This document shows positions 2,381-33,220 of a stretch of DNA of 43,043 nt, one piece after another. The notes under the pieces were generated by a model. The model had not been told where the DNA came from. It saw only the letters and a program-made list of their open reading frames with translations, and did not search any database. Origin of the DNA: Parcubacteria group bacterium Gr01-1014_56 (GTDB lineage Bacteria > Patescibacteriota > Minisyncoccia > Phycocordibacterales > SBAW01); assembly GCA_007375995.1 (NCBI GenBank), contig VMFK01000001.1, positions 1 through 43,043 of the forward strand, given 5' to 3'. The position numbers and the translations under genes are program-made. Positions within the stretch are counted from its first letter, which is position 1, and each line of letters opens with the position of its first letter.

Positions 2381-3070
2381 ATGCAAGCAGTTATCCTAGC
2401 CGCAGGCGAAGGCACGCGCATGCGCCCGCTTACGCTTACGCGCCCTAAACCCCTTGTTGAGGTTCTAGGCAAACCTATCATTGAGCATGTGGTGCGTGCT
2501 CTCCCTGACGAAATTGACGAGATCATTATCGTTGTTAAATACCTACAGGAGCAGATCCGTGCCTACTGCGGCGAGACTTTTTGTGGCAAACGTGTGACCT
2601 ATGTTGAACAAGGGCCACAGAGGGGCACTGCAGGAGCACTTAGCTACGCTCGTCCGTTTATAAACGGCCGCTTTCTTATCACGTTTGCTGACGACCTTTT
2701 AGCAAAAAAAGATATTGAGGAGCTACTCAAATACGAGTACTCGACCTTAGTAACCAGGCACGACCACCCGGAGAATTTCGGTGTCGTCTCGCTTAACCCG
2801 GACGGTACGCTCTACACTATCATCGAGAAGCCTGAGCACCCTAAGACAAACCTTATAAGCACTGGTGTAAGTGTGCTCTCCCCAAAAATTTTCGACTACC
2901 AACCAGAAGAAAGAAAAGGCGAGTTTTTTATGACCGGTATGATCACCGGTTTGGCAAAAGACTTTCCTGTCGTAGTTGTCGAAGCAAGCTTTTGGCAACC
3001 AGTTGGCACGCCCGAGGACATACCTAAAGCAGAAACCGCCCTCCTTGAGCGCTTGAGTGACGATAAATAA
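2381..3070 (+). CDS. Sugar-phosphate nucleotidyltransferase (NTP_transferase family)
   Basis: MQAVILAAGEGTRMRPLTLTRPKPLV signature (GxGTRxxPxT). The start is set at the ATG at 2381, because the longer ORF overlaps tRNA-Ser. Confidence 0.75.
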   Translation: MQAVILAAGEGTRMRPLTLTRPKPLVEVLGKPIIEHVVRALPDEIDEIIIVVKYLQEQIRAYCGETFCGKRVTYVEQGPQRGTAGALSYARPFINGRFLITFADDLLAKKDIEELLKYEYSTLVTRHDHPENFGVVSLNPDGTLYTIIEKPEHPKTNLISTGVSVLSPKIFDYQPEERKGEFFMTGMITGLAKDFPVVVVEASFWQPVGTPEDIPKAETALLERLSDDK

Positions 3071-3076
3071 ATCCTG

Positions 3077-3149
3077 TGCGCGATAGAGGACTCGAACCTC
3101 TGACCCTCCCCACGTCAAGGGGATGCTCTACCAACTGAGCTAACCGCGC
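3077..3149 (-). tRNA. tRNA-Val (anticodon GAC)
   Basis: Acceptor GCGCGGT/ATCGCGC, D arm AGCTCAGTTGGTAGAGC, anticodon loop TTGACGT, T arm AGAGG-TTCGAGT-CCTCT. Confidence 0.85.
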
Positions 3150-3197
3150 GTGTTCAAAACAATAGCAAAAACAACGATTCTGCGCTATACCAACAGT

Positions 3198-4238
3198 ATG
3201 AAAGTGCTTGCGATAGAAACCTCCTGCGACGAGACAGGAATAGCGATTGTTGAGGGAGAAAAGATTTCTGACGGTTTTTCTTTTACTGTGCATAAAAACG
3301 TCTTGCTCTCCCAAGCGGCTCTCCACGCAGAGTTTGGGGGTGTATACCCCAATCTCGCTAAGCGCGAACATCAAAAAAACCTCCCTGTTTTATATGAGCA
3401 GTTTAAAGATGAGGTGGTGGATGCGATCGCAGTTACTCAAGGCCCTGGGCTTGAGCCTGCGCTGTGGACCGGTATCGAATTTGCAAAAAAAGTTGCAGCC
3501 GAGCGCGGCGTGCCGCTCCTCCCTACTAATCATATGGAAGGGCATTTAATTTCTTCTCTAGTACAAAATGGAAAACTCGAGAAAGTTGAGTTGCCTGTGC
3601 TTGCACTCCTTGTCTCCGGCGGACACACAGAGTTTGTTTTAATGGAGAGCTGGTTTAAGTATGAAGTTATCGGCGAGACGCTTGACGACGCTGTGGGCGA
3701 AGCGTTCGATAAAGTTGCGCGTATGCTTGGCTTGGCTTACCCTGGGGGCCCCGAGATTTCCAAATACGCCTCCCAAGCCCGTGAGCAAGGTTTAACCTTG
3801 CTCAAAACACTACCGCGGCCAATGCTCAGGTCGGACAATTGTGATGTCTCGTTCTCTGGCCTCAAAACCGCGGCACTCTACGCACTGCGCGGAAAAGAAT
3901 TATCTGAAGATGAGAAAAAAGCCTTCGCACGTGAGTTTGAGGACGCGGTCACAGAAGTATTTTTAGTAAAAACAAAACGTGCGCTTGAGGAGACAGACGC
4001 AAAAACGTTTGTCATCGGCGGAGGAGTTGCCGCAAATACTTATTTGAGAGAAAAACTGAAGGCGGTCGTTAAATCTGCGTTTGCTGAAGTAGACTTTCTC
4101 CTCCCTGAACGTTCGATAACTGGCGACAATGCGATCATGATCGCTGAAGCCGCACTCGCTCGCCGTCTCTCCGGACTTGACGACTCCGACCAGGGAGATT
4201 TCCGCGCTGTTGGAAATCTCTCAATAGAAAAAGATTGA
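3198..4238 (+). CDS. tsaD: tRNA N6-adenosine threonylcarbamoyltransferase TsaD
   Basis: MKVLAIETSCDETGIAIV, HMEGH and LVSGGHT motifs. The ATG at 3198 is chosen because the GTG at 3150 abuts tRNA-Val (3077-3149). TGA stop at 4236-4238. Confidence 0.9.
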   Translation: MKVLAIETSCDETGIAIVEGEKISDGFSFTVHKNVLLSQAALHAEFGGVYPNLAKREHQKNLPVLYEQFKDEVVDAIAVTQGPGLEPALWTGIEFAKKVAAERGVPLLPTNHMEGHLISSLVQNGKLEKVELPVLALLVSGGHTEFVLMESWFKYEVIGETLDDAVGEAFDKVARMLGLAYPGGPEISKYASQAREQGLTLLKTLPRPMLRSDNCDVSFSGLKTAALYALRGKELSEDEKKAFAREFEDAVTEVFLVKTKRALEETDAKTFVIGGGVAANTYLREKLKAVVKSAFAEVDFLLPERSITGDNAIMIAEAALARRLSGLDDSDQGDFRAVGNLSIEKD

Positions 4239-29318: not shown

Positions 29319-31211
29319 ATGGACGAACAGAAAAAAAATCCCGTGCAGGGTGGGCCTCCGTCGGGAGGAGGAAAAGGTAGAGGCCAACGTCGCGGAGGCG
29401 GTCGGCCATTTGGCGGCCGCCCAGGTGGCAAGGGCGGGAGGCTTCGTCATGGAGGTCCGCGCCCACACCAGGCGCACCCACTTCGTGAGATTAAAGAGTC
29501 AAACGGCAACGGCGAGGAGCAGCAGATCCCGCCATTGGAGGCTGGCAATATCCGCATTATCCCGCTCGGCGGTGTAGAGGAGATCGGCCGCAACATGACC
29601 GCGATTGAGTTTGGCGACGACATTATTATCGTCGACTGCGGGTTCCAGTTTCGCGACGCAGACACACCGGGTATCGACTACATTTTGCCCAACACAAAAT
29701 ATCTCGAAGACCGTAAAGAAAAGATCCGTGGGCTGTTTATCACGCACGGGCACCTCGACCATATCGGCGGCATCCCCTACATAATCGACCGCATCGGCTA
29801 CCCGCCTGTGTACACTCGCCGTTTGACCTCGATCATGATCAAGAAGCGCCAGGAGGAGTTCCCCAACATGAAGCCGCTGGACATGCAGGAGGTTGAGAAG
29901 GAGGACACTATCCGCGCAGGAGATTTGCGCGTGCGGTTCTTCTCGGTGACACACACGATCCCCGACTCTATGGGCGTCATTATTGAAACACCCTATGGGC
30001 TCTTGGTGTTTACCGGCGACCTCAAGCTCGACCATGTCGACGGCGTACCGACCGAGGCGGAGGAAAAAGAGTTCGCCTATTTTAAAGACAAGAAGGTGCT
30101 CTTCTTGGCTGCGGACTCAACCAACGTCGAGAAGGCCGGCTTCTCGATCCCAGAGTCGACCGTTAAGAAAAACATGGACGAGATCATCGCCAATACCTCA
30201 GGACGCCTCATTATAGGAACCTTCTCCTCCCAACTCGAGCGACTCATGCGCATTGTGGAGCAGGCTGAGCGCGTTGGTCGCAAAGTCTTGGTTGAGGGCC
30301 GCAGTATGAAGGTCAACCTCGAGATCGTAAAACAGTTAGGGTTGCTCAAAGTAAATGAGAAGACATTTATCGGCCCAGAGAGTCTTGAGTCGACCCCTGA
30401 CAGCAAGGTGCTCATCCTCGCAACAGGCGCACAAGGCGACGAGTTTGCGGCGCTTATGCGCATCGCAGTCAAGACGCACAAATACGTCAAAATAAAAAAG
30501 GGCGACACGGTCGTGCTCTCCTCCTCTATTGTCCCCGGCAACGAGCGTGCGGTACAAAAGCTCAAGGACAATATCAGCCGCCAAGGTGCGCGCATTATCC
30601 ACCGCGACCAGATGGACGTGCACGCCTCCGGCCACGCCAACCGCGACGAAACATTTTGGATCCATCAAAAAATAAATCCGCGGTTCTTTATGCCACTCCA
30701 CGGTTACCACTACATGCTGCGCGTCCATGCAGACATCGCCAAGGCCTGCGGCCGCTCTGAAGATGAGATTATCGTGCCGGACAATGGCGTGGTTATCGAG
30801 ATAAGGGACGAGGGTCAAAAAATTGTGCGCCTCAAAGAGATGGCCCCAAATAGCTTGCGGCTAGTGGACGGTTTTGCTATCGGCGACCTCCAGGAGGTAG
30901 TGATCCGCGACAGAACCGTGCTCGCACAAGAGGGTATGTTCGTGATTATTGCCACTGTTAACCCTCGTACAGGAAAGTTGCGTAAATCTCCCGACATTAT
31001 TTCTCGCGGCTTCGTATACTTAAGAGAGTCGCAGGAGTTGCTCCAGCAAGCGCGCATCATTGTAAAAAAGACAATTGAGGACAGCGCTCACGGGCAGCAG
31101 CCAGTTAACTTCGACTTCGTTAAAAATAATGTGACCGACGCTGTCGCTCGCTTCCTCTTCGAAAAAACAAACAAAAGACCGATCGTTATCCCCGTCGTGC
31201 TGGGAGTTTGA
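29319..31211 (+). CDS. rnj: Ribonuclease J with an Arg/Gly-rich N-terminal extension
   Basis: Metallo-beta-lactamase/beta-CASP motifs: IIPLGGVEEIGRNM, FITHGHLDHIGG, ASGHANRDE. The first ~60 aa are GGGKGRGQRRGGGRPFGGRPGGKGG-type low complexity. Confidence 0.85.
   Translation: MDEQKKNPVQGGPPSGGGKGRGQRRGGGRPFGGRPGGKGGRLRHGGPRPHQAHPLREIKESNGNGEEQQIPPLEAGNIRIIPLGGVEEIGRNMTAIEFGDDIIIVDCGFQFRDADTPGIDYILPNTKYLEDRKEKIRGLFITHGHLDHIGGIPYIIDRIGYPPVYTRRLTSIMIKKRQEEFPNMKPLDMQEVEKEDTIRAGDLRVRFFSVTHTIPDSMGVIIETPYGLLVFTGDLKLDHVDGVPTEAEEKEFAYFKDKKVLFLAADSTNVEKAGFSIPESTVKKNMDEIIANTSGRLIIGTFSSQLERLMRIVEQAERVGRKVLVEGRSMKVNLEIVKQLGLLKVNEKTFIGPESLESTPDSKVLILATGAQGDEFAALMRIAVKTHKYVKIKKGDTVVLSSSIVPGNERAVQKLKDNISRQGARIIHRDQMDVHASGHANRDETFWIHQKINPRFFMPLHGYHYMLRVHADIAKACGRSEDEIIVPDNGVVIEIRDEGQKIVRLKEMAPNSLRLVDGFAIGDLQEVVIRDRTVLAQEGMFVIIATVNPRTGKLRKSPDIISRGFVYLRESQELLQQARIIVKKTIEDSAHGQQPVNFDFVKNNVTDAVARFLFEKTNKRPIVIPVVLGV
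31163..31211 (+). repeat. Direct repeat, copy 1 (last 15 codons plus stop of rnj)
   Basis: 33 nt are identical to 32031-32063. The next 16 nt differ from copy 2 only at synonymous positions. Confidence 0.85.
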
Positions 31212-31271
31212 CATATATAATTTGTTGTAGTACAATCGTCTTTGGAACAACAGCCAAAAGGAGACCGTTCC

Positions 31272-31442
31272 ATGAAGTACATTTTGATTTATGTAATCGT
31301 AGTGACGGGAGGTTTTGCGGGTGATACACCCGCAGTCACCACTGGGAGCGTTGAATTTGACTCCCAAGCAACATGTCAGAGCGCGGTGGAGTCTATGAAG
31401 AAGGATCTTAAATCCTTGTCCATTTCTTGCCACCAGAAATGA
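31272..31442 (+). CDS. Hypothetical small exported protein
   Basis: 56 aa. AAGGAG lies 8 nt before the ATG at 31272. Hydrophobic N-terminus MKYILIYVIVVTGGFAG, two Cys residues, and a terminator follows. Confidence 0.45.
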   Translation: MKYILIYVIVVTGGFAGDTPAVTTGSVEFDSQATCQSAVESMKKDLKSLSISCHQK

Positions 31443-31450
31443 TGAGGAAA

Positions 31451-31480
31451 GGGGCGGTTTATGTGCCGCCCTTTTATCTT
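31451..31480 (+). terminator. Rho-independent terminator
   Basis: GGGCGG-tttatgtg-CCGCCC followed by TTTTATCTTT. Confidence 0.65.
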
Positions 31481-31531
31481 TCTAATCCAAAATTGAAAAA
31501 CAATTACAAAGCTCCTCTTGTTGCATACTCT

Positions 31532-31559
31532 AAAACACTTCGATATATCGAAGTGTTTT
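31532..31559. repeat. 28-nt perfect palindrome at the 3' end of the HTH gene (terminator and/or operator)
   Basis: AAAACACTTCGATATATCGAAGTGTTTT. The 17-nt core ACTTCGATATATCGAAG recurs at 31968-31984. Confidence 0.8.
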
Positions 31560-31963
31560 TAATACATATCATCTAAGAATTTCCAACGAGGTGCGTGGCG
31601 TGAGCGAGGCCCAGTAAGTAAAAGAGTAAAAACCGCGAGGACAGCCTCGTTCACCTTATTCTTCTTTACTGCGAGTATCGTCTCTTTAAACTTACCTTTC
31701 TGCATCGCTGACCAGAGCCGTGCAACAGTAGAAGAACTCACCTTAAGTTCTTTGCTTATTTCTTCAAACGACACTCCTTCACCCAGCAAGCAAATAATAG
31801 CTAAACGCTTTGCAAGCATGAGACGCTCTGTTCCTGTCAATAACTCCCAACACAGCGCTGACCGCGATTTTGCCGTACCTTTCCGAGCAAAATTATCTAC
31901 GAGCGAAAGTATCAGCTTTTTCTCTAATTGTCCTTTTAAAAATTGTTTTGATAGATGTGGCAT
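31559..31963 (-). CDS. TrpR/YerC-YecD-like helix-turn-helix protein
   Basis: ELLTGTERLMLAKRLAIICLLGEGVSFEEISKELKVSSSTVARLW resembles Trp-repressor-like YerC/YecD proteins. The start is set at the ATG at 31963, just after the palindrome. Confidence 0.55.
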   Translation of the reverse strand: MPHLSKQFLKGQLEKKLILSLVDNFARKGTAKSRSALCWELLTGTERLMLAKRLAIICLLGEGVSFEEISKELKVSSSTVARLWSAMQKGKFKETILAVKKNKVNEAVLAVFTLLLTGPRSRHAPRWKFLDDMY

Positions 31964-31967
31964 AAAT

Positions 31968-31984
31968 ACTTCGATATATCGAAG
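31968..31984. promoter_or_regulatory. Palindromic operator candidate 4 nt upstream of the HTH gene start
   Basis: ACTTCGATATATCGAAG lies between a candidate minus-strand promoter (TTGCAC-18 nt-TATATC) and the ATG at 31963. Confidence 0.45.
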
Positions 31985-32030
31985 CGTTCTAGATATAACA
32001 TAAGAAAAGATAGTAGTGCAAATCTTGCCG

Positions 32031-32079
32031 AAAAACAAACAAAAGACCGATCGTTATCCCCGTGGTACTTGGGGTCTAG
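32031..32079 (+). repeat. Direct repeat, copy 2 (orphan copy of the rnj 3' end)
   Basis: Reads ACA AAC AAA AGA CCG ATC GTT ATC CCC GTG GTA CTT GGG GTC TAG = TNKRPIVIPVVLGV*, the same peptide as the rnj C-terminus. Confidence 0.85.
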
Positions 32080-32143
32080 GGGTTGACGGAAATACATACT
32101 CTGCGTTACAAAGTAAAGAGGACGCGAGTCAGGAGTTCTAGAA

Positions 32144-32335
32144 ATGAAAAAAACGAAGCATAAATGTCCGGGGTGTGATATTGATCAACCCGCGACAGAG
32201 GGTGTAGATGGGAGAGTGATTATGGATAGTCATCCCTTCCCTAACAAGACTTCGGAGTGCCCAGGAAGTGGAATCTCGGTTATCAAGAATCCAACTTTTA
32301 TGCAGGACATCTTCAATAGACTCAGTCTAAACTGA
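32144..32335 (+). CDS. Hypothetical small Cys-containing protein
   Basis: 63 aa. AGGAG lies 8 nt before the ATG. CPGC...ECPG could form a zinc-ribbon-like site. No family recognised. Confidence 0.35.
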   Translation: MKKTKHKCPGCDIDQPATEGVDGRVIMDSHPFPNKTSECPGSGISVIKNPTFMQDIFNRLSLN

Positions 32336-33220
32336 GTACTTGCCCCTTTTGGCTTTGACCAACTGTTCTTTCTTCAATTGATCAAGGACCTTTAAGACCT
32401 CTCCCCTGGTACGGGAGAGGCCTTTTGCTAGAGCGTGAGCGGTTTGTGGGGAGTCAAGTAGTTTTTTTAGTATCGCACCACGCAACTGCCTCGTTGAGCC
32501 TTCAAATTTTTTCTGCTTTGTGTAGTGTTTGCTTTTACTATTGATACGAACGCCGCTTTGTTTTAAAAATGCTCCATAATCCATAAGAGCCGCATAGAAA
32601 TCGCGTGGCTGCATCTTTGATTTCTTGAGTACCTTTTCAACTAGCGGCAAAATCTCCTTATCAGAAACTAATCTGGTATTCTGCAGAATATTAGAATATA
32701 AAAACACAGTGCGGATGTTTGTTTCAATAAAAATTTCTGGCCTGTTATACGCAAATGCAGCGACCGCTCGGGCAGTATAGGGTCCTACCCCAGGCAGACT
32801 CTCCAAAAACTCGGCGCTCAGTTCGGCAAAAACTTTTCGTGCAGGAGTGCGGTATATCTCTCCGGAGCGAAGAGTTTTTGCCGAACTGAGTTTTTTAGCT
32901 GCCTCGTGCAAGAATTTTGCCCGCCGGTTATAGCCCAGCCCACTCCATAGTTTTAAAACATCTGACAATCGTGCTCGTGCTAACGCCCTTGCAGTTGGAA
33001 ATCTTTTTATAAATTTTAAATAAAACGGGACTACACGTTTTGCCTGTGTTTGCTGCAGCATCACCTCGGAGACCAAAATTTTATACGGGTCATATGTCGT
33101 CCTCCACGGCAAGTCGCGTTTGTTCTTCGCATAAAACTTTTTAAGACTGCGTAATAGCTCAGGCACGGTAGCATCATAACAAAAACACTCCCGATTGGGA
33201 GTGTTTTTGTTTGAGAGCAC
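32327..33220 (-). CDS. HhH-GPD DNA glycosylase, MutY-like N-terminal domain with a winged-helix-like C-terminus
   Basis: LPWRTTYDPYKILVSEVMLQQTQAKRVVPFYLKFIKRFPT, WSGLGYNRRAKFLHEAA and LPGVGPYTARAV. No Cys cluster is visible after the HhH domain. Confidence 0.7.
   Translation of the reverse strand: MLSNKNTPNRECFCYDATVPELLRSLKKFYAKNKRDLPWRTTYDPYKILVSEVMLQQTQAKRVVPFYLKFIKRFPTARALARARLSDVLKLWSGLGYNRRAKFLHEAAKKLSSAKTLRSGEIYRTPARKVFAELSAEFLESLPGVGPYTARAVAAFAYNRPEIFIETNIRTVFLYSNILQNTRLVSDKEILPLVEKVLKKSKMQPRDFYAALMDYGAFLKQSGVRINSKSKHYTKQKKFEGSTRQLRGAILKKLLDSPQTAHALAKGLSRTRGEVLKVLDQLKKEQLVKAKRGKYSV

Follow-up and report, generated by a model that had tools for sequence, protein, structure and literature searches.

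Introduction

The integration of an element into the 3' end of a gene, with the supply of a replacement end, is a classical principle. In Escherichia coli, e14 and phage 21 integrate in the 3' end of icd; both are prophages of 20-40 kb that carry an integrase and an excisionase, and about 165 bp of the gene are duplicated. Smaller elements lack an integrase of their own: cis-mobilizable elements (CIMEs) are att-flanked satellites that are mobilised in trans by the integrase of a related integrative and conjugative element or phage, and integron gene cassettes, about 0.5-1 kb long with one or two genes and no recombinase, accumulate at a single site. Here we describe a locus in a stretch of 43,043 nucleotides (the window; contig VMFK01000001.1, forward strand) of Parcubacteria group bacterium Gr01-1014_56, in which the 3' end of rnj, the gene of RNase J, occurs twice and brackets a cassette of about 0.87 kb that holds a regulator gene and no recombinase.

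The cassette resembles e14 and phage 21 in its target, the 3' end of a gene that is essential or has a housekeeping role, in an alternative end that keeps the protein through mostly synonymous changes and in the displaced original end, which is left as a pseudo-fragment at the far junction; unlike them, it measures only 0.87 kb, carries no recombinase and has a repeat of about 50 nt. Flanking gene-end repeats, an intact target gene and an empty site are all found at this locus, as in other cases of 3'-end integration, and an integrase gene of its own beside the attachment site is not. With CIMEs it shares its location at the 3' end of a conserved gene, the att-like direct repeats on both sides and a small cargo without recombination genes; on the other hand, the search of this genome and of viral contigs turned up neither a cognate element nor an integrase, and the position of the crossover seems variable. 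Like integron cassettes, the cassettes at rnj are small, recombinase-less and located at one site; contrastingly, there is no IntI, attI or attC, the repeat is the coding end of rnj and the cassette has promoters of its own. The locus differs from insertion sequences and transposons as well, since the insert contains neither a transposase domain nor terminal inverted repeats, and its direct repeats differ synonymously, with the differences clustered at one end. A limited literature search did not find a recombinase-less regulator cassette of 0.65-1 kb that occurs repeatedly, in different lineages, at the same essential gene and whose promoter incorporates the replaced stop codon, which does not establish that such a cassette is undescribed.

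The window is contig C27 of a metagenome-assembled genome (661 kb in 53 contigs, 97% complete), and homologues of its proteins carry the labels Candidatus Adlerbacteria or Patescibacteria. It was compared with a collection of 80 genomes of the genus, 74 of which have a recognisable rnj end, and with 2.9 million viral contigs. Genomes of the collection are named G0xx (G000 is the present one), and L095, L293, L296 and L298 are contig loci. The rnj tree was built from the last 900 nt of the gene.

Results

Two ends of rnj and an empty site

A preliminary description, made from the letters of this DNA alone, had claimed that the 3' end of rnj at 31167-31211 recurs at 32035-32079. A repeat search of the window bears this out: a 45-nt direct repeat, 91% identical, lies at 31163-31207 and 32031-32075, 868 nt apart. 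The features concerned are as follows.

29319-31211, forward strand: rnj (RNase J, 630 amino acids; Pfam RNase_J_b_CASP, RNase_J_C, Lactamase_B), intact; its last 16 nt and stop are now insert-derived
31163-31211, forward strand: left repeat (attL-like); 31163-31195 is identical to the right repeat and to rnj of G026, and 31196-31211 (CGTGCTGGGAGTTTGA) is the replacement tail
32031-32079, forward strand: right repeat (attR-like), an untranslated remnant: the original end of rnj, displaced, with a TAG stop; the DNA to the right of it is homologous to that immediately 3' of the G026 rnj stop
32080-32335, forward strand: ancestral right flank with a promoter and ribosome-binding-site region and orf63 (32144-32335), which encodes a 63-amino-acid CxxC...CxGxG protein; the G026 homologue (44% amino acid identity) directly follows rnj

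The first copy (31163-31211) is the true end of rnj, because RNase_J_C aligns through the final residue of the protein (profile positions 1-102 of 102). The second copy is not part of a longer, unrelated gene: upstream, a TAG at 32014-32016 limits its open frame to 20 codons, none of them a start codon, and no listed open reading frame of the window terminates at 32079. The 29-nt core of the repeat (ACAAACAAAAGACCGATCGTTATCCCCGT) occurs exactly twice in the window, with 0 occurrences expected from shuffles, and was not found elsewhere in the 661-kb genome. Both copies encode TNKRPIVIPVVLGV and a stop, TGA in the first and TAG in the second. Counted through the stop codon, 7 of 45 nt differ; all of these differences fall within the last 16 nt, and the five sense codons affected are changed synonymously (5/5), as had been claimed. 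The description of the first 33 nt as identical was also right, except that the identity reaches 4 nt (AAAA) further to the left, where the first copy has an extra A. Reading the repeat by eye, we saw no inverted-arm structure of the Xer/dif type.

The empty site was found in G026, the closest relative in the collection (rnj 81-84% identical at the nucleotide level; sister with 99% support). Its rnj has a single end with a TAG stop and runs straight into the homologue of window positions 32080-32335, reading GGTTGACCGA...TACAAAGTA...AGGACGCGAG...AGGAGT...ATGAAAAA after the stop. The G026 sequence aligns without a break with the two flanks of the window joined at the repeat (313 of 438 positions), and the DNA that follows the first copy does not align with it. 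Therefore, the second copy and its right flank are the ancestral end, and the tail of the first copy from 31196 together with the following 0.82 kb is the insert. Nor is the doubled end a conserved feature of the genus: two intact rnj ends are present only in G000 and G029, and the other 72 of the 74 genomes have one. An insertion that replaced the end of rnj has thus taken place, and it is highly probable that the 868 bp between the repeats are, as a unit, an integrase-less cassette that brought this replacement end with it.

Recurrence of the cassette after rnj

The same order of rnj end, cargo gene, palindrome, TrpR-like gene, palindrome and second rnj end was found in G029, in G079 and on the metagenome contig L095. 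In G029 the layout is complete: rnj with TGA, a homologue of the peptide gene, a terminator, a palindrome, the TrpR-like gene, a palindrome and a second end that reads ...QRPIVIPVVLGV and stop. L095, whose regulator is 72% identical to ours, has a complete second end as well (TTNKRPIVIPVVLGV and stop), and that of G079 reads PIVISVVFG, which is what decay of such an end looks like. Thus a second rnj end is kept in four cassettes (G000, G029, G079 and L095). More widely, a TrpR-like gene lies convergent to rnj just 3' of it in 7 of the 80 genomes (G000, G029, G079, G090, G077, G091 and G008). On the rnj tree six cassette genomes are scattered, so that six changes are required, of which well-supported branches force at least four, and each cassette genome there has a cassette-free sister. 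The insertion therefore recurs at the same site in other lineages. The closest regulator homologues from public metagenomes (47-72% identical) are all located between rnj and an HhH-GPD gene; they came from searches with the protein for homologues and for the contigs encoding them, and a general metagenome scan gave few close relatives of the cassette. All cassettes observed are 0.65-1 kb long, without a linked integrase in any of them. A comparison of the divergence of the regulator with that of rnj gave no correlation (Spearman -0.05), but with rnj identities compressed to 72-81% its power was low.

The differences between the two ends are informative in every cassette with two complete copies. 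The sense codons that differ do so synonymously in 5 of 5 cases in G000, 4 of 4 in G029 and 5 of 5 in L095, 14 of 14 in total, where random substitution would give a synonymous fraction of 0.29 (P about 2e-8); a comparison of the displaced end of G000 with that of L095 likewise shows synonymous differences only. Each displaced end thus served as a functional end of its gene until recently. Since one of the copies is not translated, such a pattern means that both copies were working rnj ends of different lineages which were joined recently, and it rules out a duplication in place or of a target site. This implies exchange events that were repeated and fairly recent.

The replacement end itself belongs to the cassette, because its TGA is located inside a promoter of the cassette and because the ending GTT TGA tracks the cassettes with a peptide gene. 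The three cassettes with this gene (G000, G029 and G091, from separate clades) all end rnj in GTT TGA, as compared with 3 of 71 other genomes, and sisters of the cassette genomes end it in TAG or TAA. In each of the three, the TGA lies within a TTGACA or TTGATA hexamer, with a -10-like box at a distance of 17 nt; in L095, too, the stop overlaps a -35-like hexamer, TAGACA, at this 17-nt spacing. The empty site in G026, the recurrence in other lineages and the cassette promoter in the new end uphold the earlier interpretation of an element that integrates in the 3' end of a gene, supplies a replacement end and displaces the original one. As a side observation, GTT TGA is also the end of rnj in the cassette-free genomes G020, G080 and G082, perhaps as the footprint of a cassette that was excised by a crossover which kept the tail of the element.

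Content of the insert

The insert carries the following genes and signals.

31208-31236, forward strand: promoter of the peptide gene (TTGACA, 17-nt spacer, TACAAT; 11 of 12 consensus positions), with the rnj stop TGA inside the -35 hexamer
31272-31442, forward strand: cargo peptide gene, an open reading frame of 56 amino acids with a hydrophobic N-terminus and two Cys; homologues at the same position in G029 (46% identity) and G091
31448-31485, forward strand: intrinsic terminator of the peptide gene (hairpin 31448-31475; 11-bp stem with 6 G-C pairs, then a T tail)
31532-31559, no strand: perfect 28-nt palindrome AAAACACTTCGATATATCGAAGTGTTTT at the 3' end of the TrpR-like gene
31559-31963, reverse strand: TrpR/YerC-like helix-turn-helix regulator (134 amino acids, PF01371), convergent with rnj
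31968-31985, no strand: the palindrome again (ACTTCGATATATCGAAGC, with perfect symmetry over 31969-31984), upstream of the TrpR-like gene and 4 nt from its start codon

Between the repeats (31212-32034) the G+C content is 41.2%, as compared with 54.4% in rnj and 49.6% in the genome, which places the insert at the 3rd percentile of genome windows of its size and agrees with the low-G+C cassette of about 0.87 kb reported before. The DNA to the right of it (32080-33220) is likewise low in G+C, at 44%. The displaced rnj end begins about 46 nt past the second palindrome.

The peptide gene with its terminator and the TrpR/YerC-like gene are as the preliminary description had them. In searches of profile libraries the 56-amino-acid peptide matched no known family. 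The regulator matches PF01371 with 36.4 bits (cut-off 27, E=5e-9) and, by profile, the PDB entries 3KOR and 3FRW; its AlphaFold2 model (pLDDT 82.8) finds as best folds in Foldseek E. coli TrpR (1TRR, 1TRO) and 3KOR of Staphylococcus aureus, with probability 1.00 and target TM-scores of 0.69-0.73. It stays below the NCBIfam equivalog cut-offs for TrpR (TIGR01321, 18.4 vs 67.25 bits) and for YerC/YecD (TIGR02531, 17.5 vs 42.2 bits), and it has an extra conserved C-terminal tail, PR.RHAPRW. Like the TrpR/HisR (YerC/YecD) repressors (PF01371; 1TRO, 3KOR), it combines the TrpR fold and a helix-turn-helix with a palindrome of about 18-28 bp beside its own start codon, which suggests autoregulation. 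Unlike in those repressors, palindromes are present on both sides of the gene and, in frame, within housekeeping genes, the protein has the additional tail, and the gene travels as a cassette.

No recombinase or integrase was found in the insert by open reading frames and domain search, only the peptide gene and the TrpR-fold protein. The whole G000 genome contains a single tyrosine recombinase, of the Xer type (PF00589, contig C11, adjoining xth), and no serine recombinase; the cassette had been described as integrase-less from the outset, and no integrase besides the Xer-type enzyme was found in the genome. The element is not a decayed integrase-bearing island and belongs to a family of cassettes that are always tiny and integrase-less.

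To the right of the insert the conserved neighbour of the slot is encoded.

32327-33220, reverse strand: HhH-GPD (MutY-like) glycosylase gene, outside the insert; syntenic after rnj in most genomes of the genus

This gene is low in G+C in the window (about 44%); at the G026 locus (C3) it is missing, with orf63 directly followed by an RRM gene, and in G029 it sits on a different contig. The orf63 protein (CxxC...H.P....CxGxG) is encoded outside the insert in G000, G026 and G079, and a 98-amino-acid homologue is cargo inside the L095 cassette. This difference in location suggests that cassettes pile up successively after rnj, the older ones losing their boundaries.

A paralogous unit at ruvB

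The same organisation is found at a second gene of G000. On contig C7 a TrpR-like paralogue (3093-3509, reverse strand), 33% identical to the rnj-linked regulator, lies convergent just after ruvB, and its own palindrome (ACTTCCATATATGGAAGT) stands on both sides of it, at C7:3059 and C7:3530. The order over C7:2044-3610 is ruvB, palindrome, paralogue, palindrome and a second ruvB end (RLGKEPPQNLNQKLL and stop, vs HLGKELPTDLNQKLL and stop), so that an insertion of this kind is present at ruvB as well; in most genomes of the genus ruvB is directly followed by yebC. Over the last 20 nt the displaced ruvB copy is closer to the native end of G026 than the working copy is, which gives the same polarity as at rnj. 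At the ruvB-TrpR locus of G010 our search motif did not match the ruvB end.

Several side observations concern this unit. The ruvB of G000 reads as two overlapping frames (C7:2044-2769 and 2757-3026), as compared with a single frame of 338-360 amino acids in relatives, and the split may reflect a frameshift, an error of sequencing or decay to a pseudogene. Orthologues of the C7 paralogue (56-81% identical) occur in different neighbourhoods in the genus, namely dnaK/grpE, murA/mreB and smc/rnc. In G092 (contig C7, L071) modules at 78-345 and 953-1215 flank the ruvB-linked TrpR unit; they share a 5' region of about 40 nt (CCTCCGGTTGCAACGAYACTTTCTGCGCGCTACTCTACACC) and a terminator and differ in their small open reading frames, which looks like a cassette array with conserved boundaries.

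A scan of the wider TrpR-like family covered 80 genome loci. Palindromes stand on both sides of the gene at 37 of them, and a gene-end repeat was found only at the rnj case (that of G079); the other repeats were tRNA pairs and a repeated hairpin. We thus rejected the notion that flanking repeats are a general trait of the family: gene-end repeats are occasional, not universal. The rnj locus is the clearest case examined here.

Palindromes as candidate operators

Each TrpR-like paralogue of the genus has a perfect palindrome of its own on either side, which reads ATATAT at the centre and has arms specific to the paralogue. Judged by this arrangement, the palindromes are likely operators of the adjoining TrpR-like regulator, with ACTTCGATATATCGAAGT as the likely binding site of the rnj-linked one and ACTACGATATATCGTAGT as a variant form; the palindrome at 31532-31559 likely doubles as operator and bidirectional hairpin. 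In genomes with a cassette the number of extra copies is 0-3, and the cassette-free G026 has none. Extra palindromes are located in frame inside housekeeping genes, at fixed positions, in leuS (G000, G077), rnhB (G029, G090) and murD (G029, G077). A palindrome in the trmD loop occurs in many genomes, at a fixed position; its sequence varies from genome to genome and always matches the paralogue of that genome. The intragenic copies (loci L206-L212; in G000 trmD C4:5959-6010 and leuS C37:6434-6451) are translated as TTIYRS or LRYI(V/E)V, and the one in leuS is a recoding of existing codons, not an insertion. Mobile palindromes resembling repetitive extragenic palindromes with their associated transposases (REP/RAYT) or miniature inverted-repeat transposable elements were rejected, since the protein has a plain TrpR fold, the leuS site is recoded and the trmD palindromes match their own paralogue at a fixed position, which is the behaviour of operators. 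Judged by the distribution of the sites, the cassette delivers a regulator which probably controls itself and touches translation-related and cell-wall genes.

We also observed a perfect DnaA-box-like 9-mer (TTATCCACA) 20-30 nt upstream of the regulator palindrome in G029 (L021, 2885-2893) and G091 (downstream +790), the G008 version being TTATACACA; it may be part of a promoter or due to chance.

Discussion

The best explanation of these data as a whole, and the one that we hold with moderate confidence, is a Campbell-type insertion of the cassette through short homology to rnj, probably by host recombination. The cassette would enter the last ~50 nt of rnj by one reciprocal exchange between the rnj end of the host and a copy of this end on the incoming DNA. 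As a result, rnj ends in the 16-nt tail of the cassette, with the same amino acids and a TGA stop which forms part of the -35 box of the first cassette promoter, and the own end of the host, with TAG, is left 868 nt downstream, untranslated and still joined to the ancestral downstream DNA. The cargo is a peptide with a hydrophobic head and a TrpR-family regulator bracketed by palindromes that it likely binds. As for the inserting enzyme, host RecA may act on competence-acquired DNA of related bacteria, for which the short copy of rnj would provide a portable arm of homology. We propose host homologous recombination tentatively: no integrase and no viral relatives were found, the crossover seems to vary, G000 holds RecA and ComEC, and recombination and competence genes are reported to be retained in Patescibacteria (PMC12455944). 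The identical stretch within the repeats sits at different places in G000, G029 and L095, which fits a homology-driven exchange better than an exchange at a fixed site.

Several points weigh against this explanation. RecA-dependent exchange would have to work close to its lower limit, with an arm of about 50 nt that is 75-90% identical. The left 33 nt of G000 are identical in both copies and lineage-specific, where a copy of foreign origin should differ; to account for them, gap repair, gene conversion or a same-lineage donor is needed. Assembled sequences revealed no circular or free form of the cassette, no donor and no excision product. At least seven rnj-linked TrpR cassettes (G090, G077, G091, G008, L293, L296 and L298) lack a second rnj end, and the exact palindrome in leuS of G000 suggests that the regulator is not very recent in this lineage. 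The regulator could also have occupied the slot since long ago, with frequent losses, in which case the empty site of G026 would be a precise deletion between the repeats.

Alternatively, a site-specific integrase acting in trans, from a phage or an integrative element outside the assembly, might use the 3' end of rnj as attB and insert the cassette there, as a satellite similar to CIMEs. The att-like repeats that end exactly at the stop codon, the reuse of rnj across many lineages and the identical 33-nt core of G000 followed by a diverged tail, which is classic for attL and attR, would all be explained in this way. However, a genome that is 97% complete has no integrase besides the one Xer-type enzyme, no relative of the regulator and no mimic of the rnj end was found in the viral contigs, no integrase is linked to the small cassettes at the seven loci of the genus or on the metagenome contigs examined, and the shifting position of the identical stretch fits a fixed core less well. 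We consider it unlikely that such an enzyme was at work, although absence from the samples covered does not prove the point. The idea of an ancient resident goes further: the regulator would have occupied the slot between rnj and the HhH-GPD gene for long, being often lost, and the repeats would be scars of re-acquisition, by one-sided homology with an illegitimate join or by template switching, without any cassette that moves as a unit. In its favor, the regulators of group A (47-72% identical) are always in this slot, most of their cassettes have no second rnj end, the DNA downstream of rnj is so variable that rnj is the sole homologous anchor, and the duplicated 33 nt of G000 are host sequence on both sides, as predicted. 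Contrastingly, G000, L095 and G029 share the same right junction, with the second end starting 8-12 nt past the presumed -35 box of the regulator and 40-57 nt before the stop, which makes independent random joins unlikely, and the same layout is present at ruvB. We therefore regard this account as rather improbable.

Simpler origins of the repeat fit the data far less. A local duplication or a long target-site duplication, with identical copies later diverging in place, would agree with direct repeats that flank the insert exactly and with the duplicated end of a neighbouring gene beside the TrpR unit of G092. But the 14 of 14 synonymous differences despite one untranslated copy, the confinement of all G000 differences to the last 16 nt, the different stop codons and the absence of a transposase and of terminal inverted repeats make it very improbable. 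An assembly artefact, in which two strain variants of the rnj end were misjoined, might be suspected in a metagenome assembly of 53 contigs; it is hardly credible, as the architecture recurs in four independent assemblies, the insert has complete genes, a promoter, a terminator and flanking palindromes, and both flanks extend for many kilobases in one contig.

Returning to insertion through a carried gene end, a broader generalisation can be drawn, which we consider doubtful at present. Palindrome-gene-palindrome TrpR units of the candidate phyla radiation (CPR) may be unrecognised integrase-less mobile cassettes that pass between related genomes with a copy of about 50 nt of the conserved 3' end of an essential gene (rnj, ruvB) as a homology arm; RecA and competence would insert them without damage, moving a regulator, its operators and cargo.

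CPR bacteria, or Patescibacteria, have tiny genomes with few recognisable mobile elements, and their regulation is almost unknown. The rnj locus offers a clean, datable gene gain inside an essential gene without a dedicated recombinase, recurring in several lineages, and it yields a regulator paired with a putative binding site (ACTTCGATATATCGAAGT), for which leuS and trmD contain candidate targets. If true, the mechanism would also offer a design for markerless insertion at essential genes. If host recombination and a carried copy of a gene end suffice, this would be a simple route for gene flow and for the transfer of regulators in CPR bacteria.

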